A stretch of DNA of 18,805 nt from a virus. The stretch is taken from UHGV virus genome UHGV-0261633. One strand, written 5' to 3'. The notes under the pieces are model-generated. The model saw only the letters and a list, made by a program, of their open reading frames with translations, was not told where the DNA came from and did no database searches. The translations under genes and the position numbers were made by a program. The number at the start of each line of letters is the position of its first letter. Position 1 is the stretch's first letter. Positions 1,728 to 18,638 of this stretch are shown piece after piece.

Positions 1728-1803
1728 TGGAGAATCCGAAGGGACTCGAACCCTTATAAACCTGTTTTGCAGACAGGCACATAGCCATTTCTGTCACGGA
1801 TTC
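1728..1803 (-). tRNA. tRNA-Cys (anticodon GCA)
   Basis: Hand fold: encoded CCA (tgg on + at 1728-1730), acceptor gaatccg/cggattc perfect, T-arm aaggg-actcgaa-ccctt, anticodon loop in tRNA sense CUGCAAA. Confidence 0.8.
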
Positions 1804-1807
1804 AAAT

Positions 1808-1900
1808 TGGAGGAAGATACCAGACTTGAACTGGTACACCGATTTCTCAGCTACTGGCAGTTTAGCAAACTGCTCCCTTACCTTTTAGGGTTAATCTTCC
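1808..1900 (-). tRNA. tRNA-Ser (anticodon GCU), type II
   Basis: Encoded CCA, acceptor ggaagat/atcttcc perfect, T-arm accag-acttgaa-ctggt, long variable arm, anticodon stem gcagt/actgc with loop UUGCUAA. Confidence 0.8.
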
Positions 1901-1902
1901 AT

Positions 1903-2637
1903 TTATTTCTGTAATGCGTTCTTCATTTCTGGTGTTGCAATAGTGTCAATTACACCAGTTTTACAAGCATCATCAAACCAGTCTGGTAAGATACCTGCTA
2001 AGAACCCATTGATATTCGTTTTAAGGTACTCTGCAATAAGGGCAGCTTCTTCTTCAATCATCTGCACAACTTCATCTGCATAAGCTGTAATCTTCGAGAT
2101 ACCTTCATTAATCTTACTAACAGCTTGGTTAGCTAAATCAGAAATAGTATCAAGACCTTTGTCAATAGCGTCTTGTAAGTCACTTAATACATCATTAACA
2201 CCGTCTAGTGCACTGTTAATCATATCAATAGCTTTTTGACCATACTCTGTAGCAACACCCATAATACCACTAAATGGTGTACAGCCAACTTGTTCACCTG
2301 CTGCACCCATAACATTAGAATAACCTTTTGCTACCTGCATACGTGATGAAAACTCATCAATGGACTTTTGACCGTAATCTGTCAGTGTTTTGGTAGTTGA
2401 TGTAGTGCTTGTCAGACTCGTGGTAAAGCTGTTAAGCAGAACTGTTGTAAGTCCAGCAGCAACAAGCTTATCCTTTACTGTAGGGTCTGATACAGAACTA
2501 ATAGAGCTTACAAGTGATGTAGAGGCAGCTACGGTTCCACCGAGAACTGCTGCACCAGTAATAAGGGGGTTAGAAAACCCTTTACCAGTTTTTAAGAGAT
2601 TAAAAATCTCCTTACCTTGTTCTGTCATCTCTTTCAT
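1903..2637 (-). CDS. hypothetical Ser/Thr-rich protein (~244 aa) embedded in the tRNA array
   Basis: ORF track 1903..2700, but the first 21 codons overlap tRNA-Phe and begin at a non-ATG codon; internal ATG at 2635-2637 has an AAGGTG RBS. Low-complexity S/T/A-rich N-terminal half. Confidence 0.55.
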   Translation of the reverse strand: MKEMTEQGKEIFNLLKTGKGFSNPLITGAAVLGGTVAASTSLVSSISSVSDPTVKDKLVAAGLTTVLLNSFTTSLTSTTSTTKTLTDYGQKSIDEFSSRMQVAKGYSNVMGAAGEQVGCTPFSGIMGVATEYGQKAIDMINSALDGVNDVLSDLQDAIDKGLDTISDLANQAVSKINEGISKITAYADEVVQMIEEEAALIAEYLKTNINGFLAGILPDWFDDACKTGVIDTIATPEMKNALQK

Positions 2638-2653
2638 TAAGCACCTTTGAAAT

Positions 2654-2730
2654 TGGTAGTCCAGTGGGATTTGAACCCTCTTCTCATGTTTTTCAGACAC
2701 GCGCTTTAACCATATAAGCTACTTGGACTA
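2654..2730 (-). tRNA. tRNA-Phe (anticodon GAA)
   Basis: Acceptor tagtcca/tggacta perfect, T-loop atttgaa (one mismatch in T-stem), anticodon loop CUGAAAA; 3' CCA encoding ambiguous. Confidence 0.7.
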
Positions 2731-2735
2731 TAAAT

Positions 2736-2811
2736 TGGGGTGACCTACGGGATTTGAACCCGTATAGACCATGTTCACAGCATGGGTCATTACCATTTAT
2801 GATAAGGCCAC
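2736..2811 (-). tRNA. tRNA-His (anticodon GUG)
   Basis: Encoded CCA, acceptor with one G-U, T-arm acggg-atttgaa-cccgt, anticodon stem ccatg/catgg with loop CUGUGAA. Confidence 0.8.
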
Positions 2812-2842
2812 ATTTAAGGACTCTCGTAAGAATCCTTAGAAG

Positions 2843-2918
2843 TGGCAGCGGCATAAGGATTTGAACCTTAATAAGACAGCTTCAGAGACTGCTGCATTGC
2901 CAGTTATGCTATACCGCT
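2843..2918 (-). tRNA. tRNA-Gln (anticodon CUG)
   Basis: Encoded CCA, T-arm taagg-atttgaa-cctta, D-arm gcat-tgccagtt-atgc, anticodon loop CUCUGAA. Confidence 0.75.
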
Positions 2919-2923
2919 AAATT

Positions 2924-3002
2924 TGGTACTCCATATCGGATTCGAACCGATACATAACACAGATTTTAAGTCTGGCCTCTCTGCCAATTGGAGTAATGGA
3001 GC
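2924..3002 (-). tRNA. tRNA with leucine anticodon UAA but type-I length (putative tRNA-Leu)
   Basis: Encoded CCA, discriminator A, acceptor actccat/atggagc (terminal G-U), T-arm atcgg-attcgaa-ccgat, anticodon loop CUUAAAA; about 7-nt variable loop, no long arm. Confidence 0.55.
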
Positions 3003-3004
3003 AT

Positions 3005-3080
3005 TGGCGGGGGATGTTGGAATTGAACCAACTTCTTCGATTTCAAAGACCGAGGTTTTAACCTTGTAAACTAATCCCCT
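3005..3080 (-). tRNA. tRNA-Gln (anticodon UUG)
   Basis: Encoded CCA, T-arm gttgg-aattgaa-ccaac, anticodon loop CUUUGAA. Confidence 0.75.
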
Positions 3081-3088
3081 TTAAATCT

Positions 3089-3646
3089 TTACTTTCTCAG
3101 TGGATGAATAAAGAATGCCAACATAACTCTTTCCCTTGAGAATGCTCTTTCTTCTGGGACAACACTTTTTAGCTTCCATCCAACATAAATTCTCCAGTAG
3201 AATTGTTTACCAAAGACTTTAATTGATGGGATAAAAGCGAATAATCCCCAAGCATTACTGTTCCACATTAGGAGATAACCTGTCTGATTATCTTCAGGGT
3301 CAGAACTTACGTTGATATTGCCTTTCCACTTAGTAACATCTTTTACATCTCTTCCTAACACATGGTAAGAGAAGTTATAAGCTTTGTTTCTCCAGAGCCA
3401 TCCAACTCTCTGCAAATAGACACCAAGCTTACCAATCTTTCTAATCTTAGCCCATCTTTTAACGTGACCTTCATCACCATCAATCGGGTTGTCATATGTC
3501 TCCATCCATCTGAATCCAAAAGGTAAGTGTCCTTTCTTCTCACTGTAAAATGGAACTACAAAAGGTGCTAAGATAACTGCTAAGATTGCTGCCAATGGTT
3601 CTAGCAAAGCTAAGAAAATCCATGAAGCATACTTCAAGTATCTCAT
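3089..3646 (-). CDS. hypothetical membrane protein (185 aa) embedded in the tRNA array
   Basis: ORF track; AGAGG RBS about 9 nt upstream; hydrophobic N-terminal segment IFLALLEPLAAILAVILAPFVVPF, Trp-rich remainder. Confidence 0.6.
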   Translation of the reverse strand: MRYLKYASWIFLALLEPLAAILAVILAPFVVPFYSEKKGHLPFGFRWMETYDNPIDGDEGHVKRWAKIRKIGKLGVYLQRVGWLWRNKAYNFSYHVLGRDVKDVTKWKGNINVSSDPEDNQTGYLLMWNSNAWGLFAFIPSIKVFGKQFYWRIYVGWKLKSVVPEERAFSRERVMLAFFIHPLRK

Positions 3647-3665
3647 TTAAATAGCCTCTTTAAAT

Positions 3666-3741
3666 TGGCGCAGGATAAGGGATTCGAACCCCTATTAACA
3701 GCTTCGTAGACTGTTGCTCTATCCATTTGAACTAATCCTGC
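3666..3741 (-). tRNA. tRNA-Arg (anticodon ACG)
   Basis: Encoded CCA, acceptor gcaggat/atcctgc perfect, T-arm aaggg-attcgaa-cccct, anticodon loop CUACGAA. Confidence 0.8.
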
Positions 3742-3855
3742 TTACCTACAAGAACACCATACAGTTTTTCACAAGAGTTGTTTTTACGCCTGTTTTTGAA
3801 TGACGCTATAAACTTTTTTGCAATTGATTTATTACTCATAGTGTTCTCCTAAAAT

Positions 3856-3933
3856 TGGTGTTCCAAGACGGATTCGAACCGTCACTAGTACAAGGTTTGA
3901 GCTTGCATCCTCTGCCAATTGGGATACTGGAAC
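3856..3933 (-). tRNA. tRNA with leucine anticodon CAA but type-I length (putative tRNA-Leu)
   Basis: Reverse complement GUUCCAG-UA-UCC..GGA-U-GCAAG-CUCAAAC-CUUGU-ACUAGU-GACGG-UUCGAAU-CCGUC-UUGGAAC-A-CCA; 6-nt variable loop, discriminator A. Confidence 0.55.
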
Positions 3934-3934
3934 A

Positions 3935-4009
3935 TGGTACTCACTAAAGGACTTGAACCTTTTTCTTCATCTTGTAAGGGTGATGTTTTACCATATAAAC
4001 TAAGCGAGT
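3935..4009 (-). tRNA. tRNA-Val (anticodon UAC)
   Basis: Encoded CCA, T-arm aaagg-acttgaa-ccttt, anticodon loop CUUACAA. Confidence 0.75.
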
Positions 4010-4011
4010 AT

Positions 4012-4102
4012 GAAAGAGGTCTGAAGTTGTGCCGCTAACTCAACTCCGTGGGATTTGTTACGGTCTTCAGTTGACTCAAAGCGGTCTTTCACTTGACCTC
4101 TA
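4012..4102 (-). ncRNA. tRNA-sized structured element without a canonical T-loop (possible tRNA-like RNA or degenerate tRNA)
   Basis: Outer stem agaggt (4015-4020) / acctct (4096-4101), inner stem ctgaag (4021-4026) / cttcag (4065-4070), internal hairpin ccgt..acgg (4046-4063); no GTTCGAAUC motif in either orientation. Strand not determined from sequence. Confidence 0.3.
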
Positions 4103-4105
4103 AAT

Positions 4106-4181
4106 TGGTGCTCCCACAAGGATTCGAACCCTGATAAGTTACTTACAAGGCAACCGTAATAGCCAATTATACGATAGGAGC
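4106..4181 (-). tRNA. tRNA-Thr (anticodon UGU)
   Basis: Reverse complement GCUCCUA-UC-GUAU-AAUUGGCUA-UUAC-G-GUUGC-CUUGUAA-GUAAC-..-CAGGG-UUCGAAU-CCUUG-UGGGAGC-A-CCA. Confidence 0.8.
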
Positions 4182-4188
4182 ATTAATT

Positions 4189-4263
4189 TGGAGCATCCAG
4201 AGGGAATCGAACCCTCAACCTCAGTTTGGAAGACTGTAATTTTCCCGTTTAAACTATGGATGC
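4189..4263 (-). tRNA. tRNA-Gly (anticodon UCC)
   Basis: Encoded CCA, acceptor gcatcca/tggatgc perfect, T-arm gaggg-aatcgaa-ccctc, anticodon loop CUUCCAA. Confidence 0.8.
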
Positions 4264-4269
4264 ACTAAT

Positions 4270-4345
4270 TGGTGGAGTCACCGAGAATTGAACTCGGTTC
4301 CCAAGTTTGCAAAACTCGAATTTTAACCATATAAACTATGACCCC
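4270..4345 (-). tRNA. tRNA-Ala (anticodon UGC)
   Basis: Encoded CCA, T-arm ccgag-aattgaa-ctcgg, anticodon loop UUUGCAA. Confidence 0.8.
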
Positions 4346-4351
4346 ATTGTT

Positions 4352-4427
4352 TGGTACAGGTGGAGGGAATTGAACCCATCGTCTTACTGATTAAGAGTCA
4401 GCCGCATAACCATTTTGCTACACCTGC
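4352..4427 (-). tRNA. tRNA-Lys (anticodon CUU)
   Basis: Encoded CCA, acceptor with terminal G-U, T-loop aattgaa (T-stem only 3 clean pairs), anticodon loop CUCUUAA; paralogous in outline to the tRNA at 5656-5731. Confidence 0.7.
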
Positions 4428-4434
4428 ATTAATT

Positions 4435-4512
4435 TGGTAGGAGACAAGGGATTCGAACCCTCAAACACCAACTTCTAAGGATGGTAGGTTTACCAATTAC
4501 CGTCAATCTCCC
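4435..4512 (-). tRNA. tRNA with leucine anticodon UAG but type-I length (putative tRNA-Leu)
   Basis: Encoded CCA, discriminator A, acceptor 7 pairs with two G-U, T-arm aaggg-attcgaa-ccctc, anticodon stem CCAUC/GUUGG (one mismatch) with loop CUUAGAA; D-arm poorly paired. Confidence 0.5.
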
Positions 4513-4593
4513 ATTAAATCTTTTTAGAGAACTTCTAAGAACCTAAGCAACAAGGTTCCACAACAAGCTGTAATAACCTTAGAAGCCCTCTAA

Positions 4594-4613
4594 AAAGACC
4601 TAAATAGGTCTTT
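4594..4613. other. AT-rich hairpin in array spacer (weak terminator-like)
   Basis: aaagacc-taaata-ggtcttt flanked by A/T runs; orientation and function unclear. Confidence 0.25.
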
Positions 4614-4767
4614 GCATAGTCTTGTTTAATCCGGTGACTAGAACCTTTGGAGAGCTTGATATTATCTCTTCTCCGTGACACCTACTAGGTGCTTTGACAG
4701 TGTACGACAATACACGAGGGATACCAAAGCAACATCCAAATGAAGCTTGGCTTTAAATCTTATTAGG

Positions 4768-4855
4768 CGGTAAGTAAAGGAGTCGAACCCTCACCGTATC
4801 TCTACAGTGGCAACTGTTTTCAAGACAGTTTGGCTACCATTAGCCGCTACCTACC
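4768..4855 (-). tRNA. tRNA-Ser (anticodon UGA), type II
   Basis: T-arm aaagg-agtcgaa-ccctc, ~20-nt variable region, anticodon stem actgt/acagt with loop CUUGAAA, acceptor ggtaagt/acctacc with one G-U; CCA apparently not encoded. Confidence 0.65.
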
Positions 4856-4868
4856 CCTAATAAGACTT

Positions 4869-4951
4869 TGGCATGGGACGGAGGAGTTGAACCCCTTTGA
4901 AACGGTTTTGGAGGCCGTTGCTCATGCCTTAGAGTCTTAACATCGTCCCAT
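4869..4951 (-). tRNA. tRNA-Trp (anticodon CCA)
   Basis: Encoded CCA, acceptor atgggac/gtcccat perfect, T-arm ggagg-agttgaa-cccct, anticodon loop CUCCAAA; D-region longer than canonical. Confidence 0.6.
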
Positions 4952-5093
4952 ATTATAATTCGAAGCTTACCCTGTTATCTCAACACTGTCAAGCTTCTTC
5001 TCAGATTATTTACATGTTCTGGAAAACATGAGATACAGACCACCTCCCTACAGGAAGACCCGCTAAGGCCGTCTAAGTAATCTGCTAACTATT

Positions 5094-5175
5094 TGGTCGA
5101 GGCGGCAGGACTCGAACCCGCATACTCCACTTACTCGGTTAACGGCGGTTTAGAAGACCGCTGAGATACGCCCCG
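5094..5175 (-). tRNA. tRNA-Arg-like (anticodon UCU) with non-canonical body
   Basis: Encoded CCA, acceptor cgaggcg/cgccccg, T-arm gcagg-actcgaa-cccgc, perfect anticodon arm GCGGU-CUUCUAA-ACCGC; but only 7 nt between acceptor and anticodon stem (no room for a D-arm) and 23 nt between anticodon and T arms. Confidence 0.45.
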
Positions 5176-5423
5176 TAATTATCTTTAAAGACTCTCTTAG
5201 AAAGCCCTTAAAGATGCCCACCTTATTAATCATACCGTGGGCGAGTACGCCAAATTCTTTAATGAGGGATTGGAAGACCTCACTGGTGTTTAGCCTATCA
5301 AGCTACTGCCAGAAAAACATTGTCGTTTGCATTTATTTTAAATTTGCAAAATAGACGCTACGCAACGAAAACTAAGGTTACTATAAAGTAGTCACATCTC
5401 AATGTCAACAACTTTATTGAAAT

Positions 5424-5498
5424 TGGTTGTAGGTGAGGGTATCGAACCCTCTTCTAACGGTTATCAGCCGTTTGCATTACCATTTATGCTAACCCACA
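5424..5498 (-). tRNA. tRNA-Ile (anticodon GAU)
   Basis: Encoded CCA, T-arm gaggg-tatcgaa-ccctc, D-arm gcat-taccattt-atgc, anticodon stem aacgg/ccgtt with loop CUGAUAA. Confidence 0.8.
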
Positions 5499-5500
5499 AT

Positions 5501-5577
5501 TGGAGGTTCAGATGGGAATCGAACCCACATTCATAGGGCTTATGAAACCCCTGCATTACCTTATCTGCGACTGAACC
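5501..5577 (-). tRNA. tRNA-Met (anticodon CAU), elongator-like acceptor
   Basis: Encoded CCA, acceptor ggttcag/ctgaacc perfect, T-arm atggg-aatcgaa-cccac, anticodon stem GGGGU/GCCCU with loop UUCAUAA. Confidence 0.7.
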
Positions 5578-5655
5578 AGAATAAGTACCCTAGTTAGAGA
5601 AACTGTTGAGTGGGTGTTTCCAGCCGCGCAGGTGTTTCTCAGTTAAGGGTGAATT

Positions 5656-5731
5656 TGGTAGAAGTGGAGGGATTCGAACCCATCGCCTGTCAGATTAAAA
5701 GTCTGCCGCATCACCATTCTGCTACACTTCC
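5656..5731 (-). tRNA. tRNA-Lys (anticodon UUU)
   Basis: Encoded CCA, acceptor with terminal G-U, T-loop attcgaa, anticodon loop CUUUUAA. Confidence 0.7.
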
Positions 5732-5736
5732 ATTAA

Positions 5737-5876
5737 ATTATCTTTGTAGATAAGCTACCCAGACTTGCTTAAGGTCTGTAGCGATGTGCCTTTTGGGTTT
5801 AAATCTAGAATTTACCCTTCACCCTTTGTGGTCGCATACTCACAGGTAAGCTTAATAACTTATCTACAAAGATAAT
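5737..5876. repeat. 18-bp perfect inverted repeat flanking a 104-bp ORF-free segment
   Basis: attatctttgtagataag (5737-5754) is the exact reverse complement of cttatctacaaagataat (5859-5876). Confidence 0.85.
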
Positions 5877-5920
5877 TACCAGACCGTTGTTTATCATCTT
5901 AAGTGCTACCATTACACCAA

Positions 5921-5975
5921 CTCGACATCTGCCGAGTGAAGGAATCGAACCTTCGCCTTTTCTTTACCGGAGAAA
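5921..5975 (-). other. tRNA fragment-like element (canonical T-arm plus one hairpin, no matching acceptor 5' strand)
   Basis: T-arm gaagg-aatcgaa-ccttc (5938-5954) and hairpin tttct-ttaccgg-agaaa (5958-5974); no complementary acceptor strand found downstream. Confidence 0.3.
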
Positions 5976-5990
5976 TAGATTGTTTAAGTT

Positions 5991-6018
5991 TTGCTGTAAA
6001 CGGTCTTCTGTAAATTTG
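5991..6018. repeat. 28-bp exact direct repeat, copy 1 (ttgctgtaaacggtcttctgtaaatttg)
   Basis: Identical 28-mer at 6471-6498; degenerate copies at about 6078-6097 and 6638-6658. Confidence 0.85.
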
Positions 6019-6130
6019 TTGAGCCAGACCAAGTTTTAAATTTTCAAAATTAAATTGGCTTGAAATTTCATACATTCTTGCTGTATTTGGTCTTCTGCTC
6101 CTTTAAAGAATACTCGTAAGAACTCTTTAA

Positions 6131-6153
6131 GGGAGGGGCTAAATAGCCCTCTC
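6131..6153. other. GC-rich hairpin gggaggggct-aaat-agccctctc
   Basis: Shares the 15-mer ggggctaaatagccc with a hairpin at 18364-18378. Confidence 0.5.
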
Positions 6154-6158
6154 AAAAT

Positions 6159-6235
6159 TGGCGGCTACGATGAGACTTGAACTCACATCATCTCCCGTGA
6201 CAGGGGAGTATTTTCTCCAGTTAAACTACATAGCC
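6159..6235 (-). tRNA. tRNA-Asp (anticodon GUC)
   Basis: Encoded CCA, T-arm atgag-acttgaa-ctcac, anticodon stem ctccc/gggag perfect with loop CUGUCAC. Confidence 0.8.
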
Positions 6236-6240
6236 TTTAT

Positions 6241-6328
6241 TGGTGTGCCGTGTAGGAGTCGAACCTACCGAGTCTCAATGACAAGGGATTTACAGTCCCC
6301 ACCGCTACCATCTACGGGATAACGACAC
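6241..6328 (-). tRNA. tRNA-Tyr (anticodon GUA), type II
   Basis: Encoded CCA, T-arm gtagg-agtcgaa-cctac, ~15-nt variable region, anticodon loop CUGUAAA. Confidence 0.75.
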
Positions 6329-6336
6329 ATTTAATT

Positions 6337-6413
6337 TGGCGGTTAGTCAGGGATTCGAACCCTGTGCCATTCGCTTAACAGGCGACCGCACATACCTTAT
6401 GTGCTTCCTAACC
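6337..6413 (-). tRNA. tRNA-Asn (anticodon GUU)
   Basis: Encoded CCA, T-arm caggg-attcgaa-ccctg, D-arm gcac-ataccttat-gtgc, anticodon loop CUGUUAA. Confidence 0.75.
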
Positions 6414-6470
6414 ATGTTTAGTATTACCAGACCGTATCTTTCAATTTTTCCGCTAAAAATTTAATAAGTA

Positions 6471-6498
6471 TTGCTGTAAACGGTCTTCTGTAAATTTG
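6471..6498. repeat. 28-bp exact direct repeat, copy 2, abutting the 3' end of a tRNA-Met gene
   Basis: Identical to 5991-6018. Confidence 0.85.
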
Positions 6499-6573
6499 GA
6501 GGCGGGTGCAGGAGTCGAACCTGCCGATACCATGCTAATGAGACATGTGAGACGCCCTTTCTCTATACCCGCA
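6497..6573 (-). tRNA. tRNA-Met (anticodon CAU), possibly initiator-type or tRNA-Ile2
   Basis: Encoded CCA, T-arm gcagg-agtcgaa-cctgc perfect, anticodon stem CAUGU/GCAUG with loop CUCAUUA, D-arm gaga-cgccctt-tctc; position 1-72 appears unpaired. Confidence 0.65.
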
Positions 6574-6664
6574 ATTCTTAATGACCAGACCAAATCTCTT
6601 CTTTGTCCGATTTACCTTCAGATGAATAAGATTAAGTTTGCTGTAATTGGTCTTCTGTCAAAAC

Positions 6665-6742
6665 TGGCGTTCCAGAAGGGATTTGAACCCTCAAATATCC
6701 ACTTTGAAAGAGTGGTGACTTTACCATTTTGTCTACTGGAAC
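6665..6742 (-). tRNA. tRNA-Glu (anticodon UUC)
   Basis: Encoded CCA, acceptor gttccag/ctggaac perfect, T-arm aaggg-atttgaa-ccctc, anticodon stem ccact/agtgg with loop CUUUCAA. Confidence 0.8.
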
Positions 6743-6749
6743 ATTAATT

Positions 6750-6826
6750 TGGTCTCTGTTGGAGGACTTGAACCTCCGGCCTTACCGCCCCAAACGGAAC
6801 GCTCTACCAAGCTGAGCTAAACAGAG
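6750..6826 (-). tRNA. tRNA-Pro (anticodon UGG)
   Basis: Encoded CCA, acceptor ctctgtt/aacagag perfect, T-arm ggagg-acttgaa-cctcc, D-arm gctc-taccaagct-gagc, anticodon loop UUUGGGG. Confidence 0.8.
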
Positions 6827-15715: not shown

Positions 15716-16169
15716 AGAAACAGTTCGAAAAGCAATGCTTACCAATTCAACTAAAGATGAAATGTACAAAGAAATCTGTGATGAGTTGAATTGCTCAAGA
15801 CATGCTGCTAAGGTTCTTGTACATTGTTTTATCTGGGAATGTTCAGAAGCTTATATGCAATATGTAGCGTTTGAGAGTTCTTACTTACTAGGCGATGTAG
15901 AAGCTGGTGAGGAGCTAAAAGAACCTGAGATGAAAACAGTTCCTAAAGTTGGTAATGTATACCACCTTAAAGACTTCAAGACTGGAAAGATTGTTGCAAA
16001 AGGTGTAGTAGAATCTGTTTATCACGATGGTAAATACTTATTTAAAATATTTGAGTATGATAGCCACTACACACACTTATGTGGGATTACATTCTTAGTA
16101 ACAGAAGAAGACCTCATTAAGAACAACGGCAACAAGTTTGCAGTACCAGCTTACCAAGTTTTACGATAA
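15705..16169 (+). CDS. hypothetical protein (154 aa)
   Basis: ORF track; overlapping start. Confidence 0.7.
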   Translation: MKIKETVRKAMLTNSTKDEMYKEICDELNCSRHAAKVLVHCFIWECSEAYMQYVAFESSYLLGDVEAGEELKEPEMKTVPKVGNVYHLKDFKTGKIVAKGVVESVYHDGKYLFKIFEYDSHYTHLCGITFLVTEEDLIKNNGNKFAVPAYQVLR

Positions 16170-16182
16170 TGGTGTGATAGCT

Positions 16183-16731
16183 ATGGAAAAAGATAACTTA
16201 AAAGAAGTTGAAGGTAACTACCTAGTCCTTGACTGGAATGATATTCGTGGAGCACTCTACGAAGAAAGCCTTAATAGGTTAGAACAAATTATCTTTGCAG
16301 TACGGGGTTACAGAGAGGTTCAAAATGGTAAAGACCCACTTGAAGGAATCTTTGTAGAGAAGTCTTATCCGTTCTATGAAGACACTTTGCAGAAAGTTAA
16401 GATGCACTTTAAACAGAAGAACCGTAAAGTGGTCACTATGGTATCTCTTGGTGGACAGAGTATGTCTGTGATGGAAGATATCAACCCTAAGAGACCGAGT
16501 AAAGGCGTTTGTATAAAAATCACAGGTCATGAAGAGTATATCTCAGTAGATGACTTTAGAGCATTCTGTAGTGGTTCTTGTGTCTTTAATGGTTTTCACT
16601 ATGATATCCGAGTGTACCCAATCAAGGGAGATGATATCATGATGCAGGTATTCGATAATAACAATGGATTTACTCATTTTTATCAGACAACCAAGTCATC
16701 ATTGAAAACAGTTCTGGAAACACTGATTTAA
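16183..16731 (+). CDS. hypothetical protein (182 aa from internal ATG; ORF opens at 16138)
   Basis: ORF track 16138..16731; start uncertain (16138 overlaps upstream gene by 32 nt). Confidence 0.6.
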   Translation: MEKDNLKEVEGNYLVLDWNDIRGALYEESLNRLEQIIFAVRGYREVQNGKDPLEGIFVEKSYPFYEDTLQKVKMHFKQKNRKVVTMVSLGGQSMSVMEDINPKRPSKGVCIKITGHEEYISVDDFRAFCSGSCVFNGFHYDIRVYPIKGDDIMMQVFDNNNGFTHFYQTTKSSLKTVLETLI

Positions 16732-16742
16732 AATATCTTAAG

Positions 16743-16766
16743 AGCCTCCTTAATCGGGGGCTTTTT
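16743..16766 (+). terminator. rho-independent terminator closing the plus-strand gene block
   Basis: agcctcc-ttaatc-gggggct then ttttt. Confidence 0.75.
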
Positions 16767-16835
16767 AATTTTTATAAAATTTATCGGTTGTCCCAACCGC
16801 TGGGTCACCATCATATGTGAATAAAATATCTACCC

Positions 16836-17850
16836 TTCTTAACAACCTTCTTAATCTTACTCTCTATATAGTTATATAGTACTATATAGTATCTTAGTAT
16901 CTATCTAGTGGTCTTAATAGCCCCTCTGTATAGTCCTTCTAAACACTCTTCTAACAAGCCTTCTTAACAACCTATACAATCACCTTAACCATACCTCTAC
17001 ACCCTCTTAGAAGCCCCTATACACCTCTTAATCTCTAGGTTAGCTATGTTACCCTCTATAGGTGTTCACTAGGTACTACTAAACCTCTATATAGACTGTT
17101 TTAACAAACTTAACAGGAATATCTTCACAGACCTTATCTCACAAGGTCTAACACGGTACTAACAAGGTATCTTATAAGCCTGTTATTACCTGTATTTTTA
17201 AAAGACTGTATAGGTAATTATTCAGAATTTTAAAATTTTTATAAAATAGGGCTATCAAGTCATTTTTTAGGGTCTTTGAAGGAACTGAAAAATATCTGTA
17301 GAAGATGTATATCTGCTTGGTAGCCCTTAACAGCCCCCTTACAAGTACTTTGCAAAATTTTAAAATATCCTTAACAATCTCTTAACAGCTACTACAGCCT
17401 CTTAACATCTCTTCAGAGGTCTTAACAGATTCTTAACAGAACTAACAAGGTTGTAACAAGTTCTTAACAGTCGATACATGGTCTTTACAGAGTCTTAACA
17501 GATGACTAACAAGAGCTAACAAGTTAATTTTTAAGAGTTATTTTGTTAAGATAATTAACAAGTCTCTAACAAGTGTTTAATCTTTTTAACAAGCTATTAA
17601 CATGGTCACTACTCTTTTCTTATCGTTCCCTTTGCTTCTTAGTGATTCTTTAAACATACCTCTTAAAAGCTCTCTATAGCTCCTTGTAAGCTCTTTTAAG
17701 TCTCTTCCTAGTATTTACCCCCCAACTGTACAGATAGCTCTTTATAGGGCTTTACAGGAGCTTTTAAGGCTATGTCAAAGACTCTTACAAGGCTTTTACG
17801 TGGTCTTAACAGAGATTTAACAAGGGGCTAACAAGTTGCTAACAAGTGCC
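16836..17850. repeat. array of short direct repeats (core TTAACAR / CTAACAAG), iteron-like
   Basis: At least 20 copies by eye, e.g. 17381, 17401, 17421, 17433, 17442, 17453, 17463, 17494, 17506, 17516, 17555, 17566, 17586, 17805, 17817, 17828, 17839; many spacings of 9-12 bp; no ORF of 60 aa or more in any frame across 16732-18380. Confidence 0.75.
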
Positions 17851-18324
17851 TTAAAAGCATAACTATGTAGGGTTTGTTAAGAAATTGTTAAGAAAATGTT
17901 AAGGGGGCTAGCATTTACGTAACTTTTAAGCTACTTCAAAGTAACTTTATAGCCCCTATAACATACTTTAAAGGAACTACCAAGCCCTTTTTAGTAGTTC
18001 ACAAGAATACTAACGAGATGATAAAGCTTACACCCTTATAAGATTCTTCTAAGGCTCTGGGAAGCTCTATAAAGGGCTTTTTAGAGTGGGTTAATGCAAT
18101 CCCTTAAGTTAGGTTGATAAGGCTGTTATAGGGCTTTATAGAGCGTTTAAATGGTTGCCCTTCCCTTTCGGGTTATGGGCTTTTATTTAAGTTGATTTGA
18201 TAAGAGGTTATAGAGTAGACTATAGAGTTATTGCTTTTAAGGTACGGGATAGATTCTATCGAATTAGTGGGATAGATTCTGGAAAGGGAAGGGAAAGGGT
18301 TGTATAGAGGCTATTACAGAGACG

Positions 18325-18351
18325 TAAAAAAGCCCCTATGAGAAAGGGGCT
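18325..18351 (-). terminator. rho-independent terminator (minus strand) downstream of the 82-aa gene
   Basis: agcccct-atgagaa-aggggct preceded on + by aaaaaa, giving a U-tract on the minus strand. Confidence 0.7.
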
Positions 18352-18389: not shown

Positions 18390-18638
18390 TTAGTTGTAAC
18401 CTTGTTTGCTGTAGTACAGAGAGATAATCAAGTCACCCCAATAATGGTAATGATATTCATCGTTCAACGCCTCTTTTACTGCATCTTTCCAGAAGTCATC
18501 AGTAGGGTTATAGTCTGGGATAACTTGTTTAATGACCGTCTTCACCAGTTCGAAACACTCATCAGTCCCGCCTATATCAAATTTAACGTCCAGAGTGTAG
18601 CAGCCATAAGAATTTACAATTGCGCGGATAGTTGCCAT
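18390..18638 (-). CDS. hypothetical acidic protein (82 aa)
   Basis: ORF track; GGAGA RBS about 9 nt upstream; terminator downstream on same strand; the overlapping + ORF 18381..18665 looks non-protein-like. Confidence 0.55.
   Translation of the reverse strand: MATIRAIVNSYGCYTLDVKFDIGGTDECFELVKTVIKQVIPDYNPTDDFWKDAVKEALNDEYHYHYWGDLIISLYYSKQGYN

Follow-up and report, generated by a model that had tools for sequence, protein, structure and literature searches.

A helically phased array of TTAACA sites in the terminal repeat region of a Felix O1-like phage: a candidate element for terminus recognition and DNA packaging

Introduction

Why should a phage keep more than twenty copies of one short motif, nearly all in the same orientation, in a stretch of DNA that is free of genes? 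The question is raised by positions 16836-17850 of the virus genome UHGV-0261633, of which a single strand of 18,805 nucleotides (hereafter, the window) was analyzed. The initial annotation of this locus, made from the letters alone, described a dense series of direct TTAACAR-type repeats and proposed a cooperative protein-binding array that might be a replication origin, a partition or centromere-like site, or a cluster of sites for a phage regulator. Comparison with related phages indicates that the array almost certainly lies in and around a direct terminal repeat (DTR) of about 590 bp, which would form the physical ends of the linear virion genome. The cores of the array are conserved beyond their surroundings and occupy a single helical register. 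We therefore favor, with a rough probability of 55%, a phased protein-binding array for terminus recognition and the DNA-packaging cut.

Location of the array at the predicted genome ends

Judged by similarity, the window is a segment of a Felixounavirus (Felix O1-like myophage) genome. The 1.7-kb gene-free stretch matches 257 phage records at 79-93% identity, nearly all of them Felixounavirus and relatives, and the window, which contains the start of the large terminase gene, a cluster of 25 transfer RNA (tRNA) genes and the ORF40-24 block, runs as the reverse complement of Felix O1 coordinates. On this 18.8-kb segment, the DTR was assigned by homology to relatives:

17319-17908, no strand assigned: homologue of the DTR of Felixounavirus, Mooglevirus and Suspvirus, with full-length homology and the same boundaries

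The stretches on either side, 16830-17318 and 17909-18320, are the non-coding flanks of the DTR.

In the record of Pr103Blw (MW481326), a "short direct terminal repeat" is annotated at 1-581 and at 87841-88421; the two copies are identical and map onto window positions 17908-17319, and the source paper reports that this 581-bp DTR was called by PhageTerm. The records of CRP22, Citrobacter phage HP1, Ro111lw, NBEco004, NBSal004 and PC79-13, deposited by independent laboratories, start or stop at the same two positions, and that of HP1 carries a repeat_region at 1-570. A 613-bp DTR was likewise called by PhageTerm in Ro111lw, and one of 608 bp was determined experimentally in UAB_Phi87 by Bal31 digestion and run-off sequencing, while for Felix O1 itself short terminal repeats had been deduced from genome size in the original paper. 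Across 14 genomes the length of the repeat is 569-623 bp. Many other GenBank assemblies open at arbitrary positions or break within the region. The motif itself is concentrated at the ends of the complete genome: when the 88,421 bp of Pr103Blw are scanned in 600-bp intervals, the termini hold up to 19 YTAACAR, and no interval in the interior has more than 5.

The DTR of Felix O1-like phages is thus already known and annotated in several records. In the literature searched, we found no account of phased TTAACA sites, of a 10.4-bp register or of mirrored motifs at the DTR boundaries.

Copy number, spacing and helical register

The claim of at least 20 direct cores was borne out, with 23 copies of YTAACAR on the + strand of 16836-17850. 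Base composition does not account for this number: 1000 dinucleotide-preserving shuffles of the ORF-free region (ORF, open reading frame) gave 1.08 +/- 1.02 copies with a maximum of 6 (z = 21.5). Shortening the motif to TAACAR or TAACA raises the + strand count to 24 and 27, and the - strand of the same interval holds 1, 2 and 3 copies of YTAACAR, TAACAR and TAACA, respectively. Within the DTR, YTAACAR reaches 28.8 per kb on the + strand, against 0.6 per kb over the remaining 17 kb of the window.

The arrangement of the array is as follows:

16830-17318, + strand: left flank array, outside the DTR, with 7 direct TAACA cores and CT-N4-AG (TATAG-type) units of the CTATATAG/CTGTATAG type
17306-17332, + strand: left DTR boundary block, TGTATATCTGCTTG before and GTAGCCCTTAACA after the boundary, identical in 8 genomes of 3 genera and recognizable in Erwinia phage M7
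17372-17602, + strand: cluster A, with 15 direct (C/T)TAACA(A/G) cores spaced 9-39 bp apart (mainly 11 or 20) and one inverted core at 17544
17537-17562, no strand assigned: fully conserved 26-bp block GTTATTTTGTTAAGATAATTAACAAG, a head-to-head core pair (TTGTTAA..TTAACAA) that contains the inverted core of cluster A
17603-17805, + strand: central DTR segment of degenerate CT-N4-AG units at about 11-bp spacing (CTTAAAAG, CTCTATAG, CTTGTAAG, CTTTTAAG, CTTTATAG, CTTTACAG, CTTACAAG)
17807-17844, + strand: cluster B, with 4 direct cores spaced exactly 11 bp apart
17875-17901, - strand: cluster C, 3 inverted cores (TGTTAAG) at 11-bp spacing
17885-17925, no strand assigned: right DTR boundary block, ending in AAAATGTTAAGGGGGC before and continuing as TAGCATTTACGTAAC after the boundary, near-invariant and recognizable in Erwinia phage M7
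17909-18320, no strand assigned: right flank array, outside the DTR, where CTTTATAG/CTTTTAAG/TATAGAG-type units recur with periods of 21-22 and 11 bp; YTAACA is absent and ATAACA occurs once, at 17959

Repeats are dense over 16836-17850, as first described, and the array extends further than this interval: the three inverted copies of cluster C lie beyond it, and a wider CT-N4-AG family, of which TTAACA is the dominant subtype, tiles the whole of 16830-18320. The family has 67 members there, a density of 40.6 per kb (10.7 per kb elsewhere), and distances between pairs of them peak at 10-11, 21-22, 31-33 and 42-44 bp. For the cores, successive spacings are exactly 11 bp in 11 of 27 cases, and the rest include 9, 10, 13, 20 and 31 bp; one of the example starts was a base off (17806 rather than 17805, followed by 17817, 17828 and 17839). 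The local unit is also seen in the base-match autocorrelation of the DTR, which has a peak of 0.459 at lag 11 against a mean of 0.278.

That the sites would face one side of the helix proved better founded than the local 11-bp spacing suggests. The DTR contains 20 direct and 4 inverted TAACA cores. The direct cores without exception share a common phase at a period of 10.40 bp (R = 0.79) and lie within about 4 bp of a single helical face. The register arises because spacings of 9, 10, 20 and 31 bp compensate those of 11 bp; for a simple tandem array of 11-bp units, the peak would be expected at 11.0 bp. Similar phase coherence is obtained when the spacings are shuffled, so that the register depends on which spacings are present and not on their order. 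Among the 14 genomes, the best period is 10.40-10.45 bp in 13 and 10.20 bp in Pr103Blw, with R between 0.73 and 0.80.

Conservation of the cores and of their distance from the ends

Eight genomes of Felixounavirus, Suspvirus and Mooglevirus, 77-94% identical to the window, were aligned to assess selection on the motif. Within the DTR, the TAACA/TGTTA columns are 96.4% conserved, against 81.3% for the other columns, and in 20,000 draws of 24 random pentamers the value of the cores was never reached. The footprint of conservation coincides exactly with YTAACA, at 0.89-0.99 per position, versus 0.64-0.81 at neighboring positions. In a wider alignment of 14 genomes from the three genera, 19 distinct gap runs occur, of which 12 measure exactly 11 or 22 bp, and each genome retains 19-22 direct copies.

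The repeated sites also adjoin the predicted cut positions at fixed distances. A first direct core stands at +10 from the left end in 14 of 14 genomes; on the other side, every genome has inverted cores 34 and 23 nt from the right end, and 11 of the 14 have one 12 nt from it, this last copy being missing from the three Mooglevirus-type sequences. The motif TAGCCC(CC)TTAACA occurs at both DTR boundaries in opposite orientations, 6-10 nt from each physical end. Read inward, it appears as TAGCCCTTAACA on the left and, in reverse complement, as TAGCCCCCTTAACA on the right, where the + strand runs through AATGTTAAGGGGGC up to the boundary and TAGCATTTACGTAAC beyond it.

Erwinia phage M7 (Kolesnikvirus, NC_041978) offers a more distant comparison, with weak similarity to the DTR over about 75 bp and almost no other DNA similarity. 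Its record has an exact terminal redundancy of 444 bp, which contains 13 direct and 7 inverted TAACA cores, a density of 45 per kb against 3.7 per kb in the coding DNA of this phage. Direct cores occupy the left side, most inverted ones are found in the half nearer the right boundary, and the boundary blocks are recognizably homologous (TGTATATCTACTTAGTGGCC and AATGTAAAAGTGGCTAAC). Outside the repeat, the right flank of M7 is occupied by a TTAGAAG-centered unit in 8 copies (counted on a construct with joined ends), four of them as CTTAGAAG, in the place where Felix-like phages have CTTTATAG/CTTTTAAG. The flank repeats thus differ between lineages, while TTAACA is common to both groups.

Three blocks of 19-28 bp, located within the array and its left flank, are identical in the 8 genomes of three genera: a TATA-rich block at 16861-16888, the AT-rich sequence TAAAATTTTTATAAAATAG at 17231-17249, and the core pair at 17537-17562. 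The first two belong to the left flank, where an AT-rich stretch covers approximately 17182-17260 and the AT content is 74-78% over 17182-17281.

Coding and transcriptional content of the region

The report of no ORF of 60 or more codons in any frame between 16732 and 18380 was correct, the longest there being 36 aa. This stretch is a convergent junction between homologues of Felix O1 ORF24 (16138-16731, + strand) and ORF23 (18390-18638, - strand), and a terminator scan placed an inward-pointing terminator at each of its edges:

16740-16765, + strand: intrinsic terminator at the end of the + strand operon, which carries the homologues of Felix O1 ORF40-24
18331-18351, - strand: intrinsic terminator that ends the - strand operon, the last gene of which is the ORF23 homologue

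In the phage KhF2, a terminator is annotated at the place homologous to 16740-16765. Several kinds of content were considered for the region and rejected. Small protein genes are not found above the 36 aa already mentioned; a non-coding RNA was rejected after an Rfam search of the region returned nothing better than E = 0.25; and a promoter cluster was rejected on promoter-like matches at chance level (7 against 5.3 +/- 2.0 expected). Host-factor sites were discarded as well, as the IHF, DnaA and Dam consensus sequences show no enrichment: IHF has no match in the region and the only DnaA-box-like match is at 16816. A signal shared with satellites or plasmids was rejected after searches of 5,426 complete E. 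coli genomes and 72,556 plasmids gave zero matches to similar DNA.

Records of relatives (e.g. MK482688, LMP25; NC_028247, Michonne gp118) carry one to four small "hypothetical protein" coding sequences in the homologous region. These annotations may be spurious, since ORFs in the corresponding stretch of the window do not exceed 36 aa.

A candidate role in terminus recognition and packaging

The reading that we favor supposes that the (C/T)TAACA(A/G) cores are bound by a phage-encoded DNA-recognition component of the packaging and terminus-generating machinery, functionally similar to a small terminase subunit. With the direct cores in a single 10.4-bp register, cooperative assembly along one face of the DNA is possible, and its substrate would be the repeat as a single copy within replicative concatemers. 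The inverted cores near the right boundary and the mirrored TAGCCC(CC)TTAACA motifs would then position a nuclease, with opposite strands cut at the two boundaries, and the repeat would be duplicated by strand-displacement synthesis during end formation. This last step is taken from the T7 model. The arrays in the flanks may belong to the same system as accessory or degenerate units. As to the cooperative protein-binding array of the initial annotation, the part that concerns binding agrees with a footprint of exactly YTAACA, the 10.4-bp register, insertions and deletions in whole 11-bp units and the retention of the motif in M7; the DTR context had been missed.

Which protein would read the cores? 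No small terminase subunit gene was identified in the published analyses of Felix O1 and UAB_Phi87. The large terminase gene of the window occupies 1-1275 on the - strand, with its start at 1275, and its Terminase_6N domain begins at residue 91. The approximately 90 residues before this domain are predicted, with low confidence, to be helical and have no domain assigned; a homologue search with this N-terminal segment returned just 3 fragments. Directly upstream of the large terminase, at 1297-1497 on the - strand, is an acidic, conserved ORF of 66 aa (phrog_4397). Either the N-terminal segment or the product of this ORF is a candidate for the missing DNA-recognition partner. A knockout study of the phage Bas63 gives no result for the homologous intergenic region.

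A related and more specific proposal is that these phages use a new form of packaging-site recognition, in which the N-terminal extension of about 90 residues of the large terminase, or a small protein, would polymerize on some 20 in-register sites across the whole DTR while the mirrored motifs direct two symmetric nicks 590 bp apart; the filament might also cap the injected ends in the manner of a telomere. Such a mode is conceivable because Felix O1-like phages have no recognizable small terminase subunit, and we regard it as speculative and unlikely.

Several points weigh against a role of the array in packaging. The exact ends are uncertain by about 3 nt, as the M7 record runs 3 nt further out at both boundaries than the ends derived from PhageTerm. 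TAACA cores of the left flank are conserved like their surroundings (0.867 versus 0.865), from which it follows that not every copy need be functional. Core conservation may be slightly inflated by MAFFT in repetitive DNA, although the alignment is mostly ungapped. The candidates for a reader protein, namely four gene products from the flanking sides and the 66-aa ORF, have no function in PHROGs and Pfam, and the AlphaFold single-sequence model of the large terminase N-terminus is unusable (predicted local distance difference test, pLDDT, of 48.5). An inverted repeat at the right boundary, which might have supported hairpin priming, is marginal and not conserved. The analogous arrays of T7 have themselves an unsettled role.

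The boundary hairpin was rejected as a conserved structure for these reasons: the 35-nt imperfect inverted repeat (17823-17857 with 17923-17957) folds only slightly better than shuffled sequences (z = -2.06, 7 of 200), and in Felix O1, SP116, SUSP2 and Michonne its arms are either missing or altered with no compensatory change. The left boundary shows no structure when compared with shuffles (z = +0.74).

Alternative functions of the array

None of the three functions named in the initial annotation gained specific support, an origin of replication having generic support from short repeats and the AT-rich stretch nearby. Under that interpretation, the cores would be iteron-like sites for a phage initiator next to an AT-rich unwinding element, and replication would begin within the terminal repeat or beside it. 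The abundance of helically phased direct repeats, AT-rich DNA close by (17182-17281) with a fully conserved block inside it (TAAAATTTTTATAAAATAG), and the existence of origins built of short octamers, such as the ori and crr of phage P4, are all compatible with such a role. The cores themselves, at 6-8 bp, are shorter than classical iterons. Among the neighboring proteins scanned no initiator-like gene was found, and the host-factor boxes amount to a single DnaA-box-like match, with no IHF consensus. Guanine-cytosine (GC) skew, which had been suggested as a check, follows gene orientation and flips at each operon boundary, both in the window and in the whole genome of Pr103Blw, and thus provides no separate evidence of an origin. 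More than 35 kb separate the region from the early replication genes and their divergent promoter region. Moreover, the exact coincidence with the DTR boundaries, the mirrored motifs found there and the inverted cores at fixed distances fit no obvious origin role. We consider an origin unlikely on balance.

It is similarly improbable that the region is structural or recombinational DNA without a sequence-specific reader. On this account, a minisatellite of 11-bp units would have arisen by slippage, and its curvature or ease of pairing would aid DTR annealing, concatemer formation or handling by the portal, the sequence being otherwise near-neutral. Insertions and deletions in whole 11- or 22-bp units are indeed typical of slippage, the entire 1.5 kb including the flanks is made of degenerate CT-N4-AG units, and the cores of the left flank are no better conserved than background. 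Slippage and near-neutrality are harder to reconcile with a sharp conservation footprint confined to YTAACA, with a copy number that is steady at 19-22 across three genera, and with a register of 10.4 bp rather than the 11.0 bp of a pure tandem array; the same hexamer is also kept in Erwinia phage M7, though the flank repeats have there changed to CTTAGAAG.

Protection of the ends or control of ejection is a further alternative, and one that we hold to be quite improbable. A protein carried in the virion or supplied by the host would sit on the first-entering DNA, where it would shield the ends from exonucleases or pause and regulate entry; a role of this kind has been considered for the non-coding, repeat-rich part of the T5 terminal repeat. 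The position of the mirrored motifs, 6-10 nt from both physical ends, would suit this function, as would a region in which no transcription is expected. The product of the adjoining gene, gp23, is present in Felix O1 virions, having been detected in purified particles by mass spectrometry. Nevertheless, gp23 has no recognizable domain and its binding of DNA has no support, twenty phased sites over 590 bp exceed what an end cap would need, and the host-factor consensus is not enriched. The gp23 homologue in the window, at 18390-18638 on the - strand, has 82 aa and directly adjoins the terminal region.

An operator or promoter cluster for a phage regulator, which a repeated array would suit and which would gain from a few weak promoter-like matches and from TTAACA being one base from the -35 hexamer TTGACA, and a plasmid-like partition (centromere) site are both very improbable, given promoter-like matches at chance level, two neighboring operons that run into the region and terminate there, no partition (ParA/ParB) or other DNA-binding family among five proteins of the window (a scan that left out its other ORFs), a virulent phage group with linear DTR genomes, and nothing similar in plasmids or E. 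coli genomes.

Comparison with known terminal and phased repeats

By architecture, the closest analogue of the region is found in the terminal repeat arrays of T7. In both, a short exact DTR lies in non-coding DNA, and a 7-8-bp motif is repeated in one orientation inside and beside the repeat. The arrays of short repeats adjacent to the T7 repeat are known as SRL and SRR, names that were reportedly given by Dunn and Studier in 1983. The T7 motif CCTAAAG occurs at 17, 41 and 60 within the 160-bp repeat and 8 more times at 175-332, which makes 11 copies in the first 340 bp, and the autocorrelation of this DNA reaches 0.54 at lag 13. The two systems differ in their motif and pitch (CCTAAAG at 13 bp in T7, versus YTAACAR at 11 bp locally and 10.4 bp overall here) and in the distribution of copies, most of which lie outside the repeat in T7 and inside it here. 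They also differ in transcription, with promoters in the terminal region of T7, whereas transcription converges and terminates in the region described here. There is no sequence homology between the two, the present phage belongs to a myovirus group in which no small terminase subunit has been identified, and the likeness is one of architecture; in neither case has a function been firmly assigned.

Among packaging sites with a known reader, the R sites of lambda cosB, the hexamer repeats of P1 pac and the pacL/pacR boxes of SPP1 are short phased repeats beside the terminase cut, in opposed groups, to which a small terminase subunit binds and so places the nuclease. These sites have 3-7 repeats over 100-200 bp, in contrast to at least 24 cores over 590 bp and two predicted cut positions 590 bp apart in the Felix O1-like DTR. 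Direct repeats in helical phase next to AT-rich DNA are also characteristic of plasmid iterons, the lambda ori and the octamers of P4 ori and crr. Typical iterons, however, are 17-22 bp long, few in number and located beside an initiator gene, while the array analyzed here has a 6-8-bp core in 20 or more copies, no adjacent initiator gene and a position at the termini. Inverted border motifs, or dense repeats in an untranscribed part, are known from the long terminal repeats of Twort-like staphylococcal phages and from the T5 terminal repeat; these are kilobases long, contain genes and have unrelated motifs, and we know of no 10.4-bp phased array described for them.

A pattern scan of IMG/VR for TAACA arrays yielded, besides Felix-like contigs, coding repeats, AT-rich tandem repeats or unrelated sequences. 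One 60-kb contig, IMGVR_UViG_3300046374_000002, has about 12 direct CTAACA copies at approximately 70-250, near the start of the retrieved stretch, and no BLAST similarity to the window. It may hold an independent terminal short-repeat array.

Short-repeat arrays at phage DTRs are already known as a type, and a new kind of biological system is not revealed here. Felix O1-like phages are widely used in Salmonella and E. coli typing, biocontrol and therapy, and some 24 phased, conserved sites with two mirrored motifs at the ends provide a testable cis-acting candidate for studies of packaging and end formation. In phage engineering, the terminal sequences should be left intact, and the region can guide the correct orientation and annotation of Felix O1-like genome records.

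Other features of the window

A second long stretch of the window is nearly devoid of ORFs of at least 60 aa because it is occupied by the tRNA cluster, the 25 genes of which lie at 1728-6826 on the - strand with few ORFs between them. The window is further distinguished by its lack of GATC, with 0 copies against 51 +/- 7 in shuffled sequences, and the same holds in Pr103Blw (0 versus about 297 expected in 88,421 bp). The genome of Pr103Blw also lacks, throughout its length, the 6-bp palindromes CTGCAG (34 expected), ATGCAT (20) and CAGCTG (17). Together, the missing GATC and palindromes point to strong avoidance of restriction or Dam sites.

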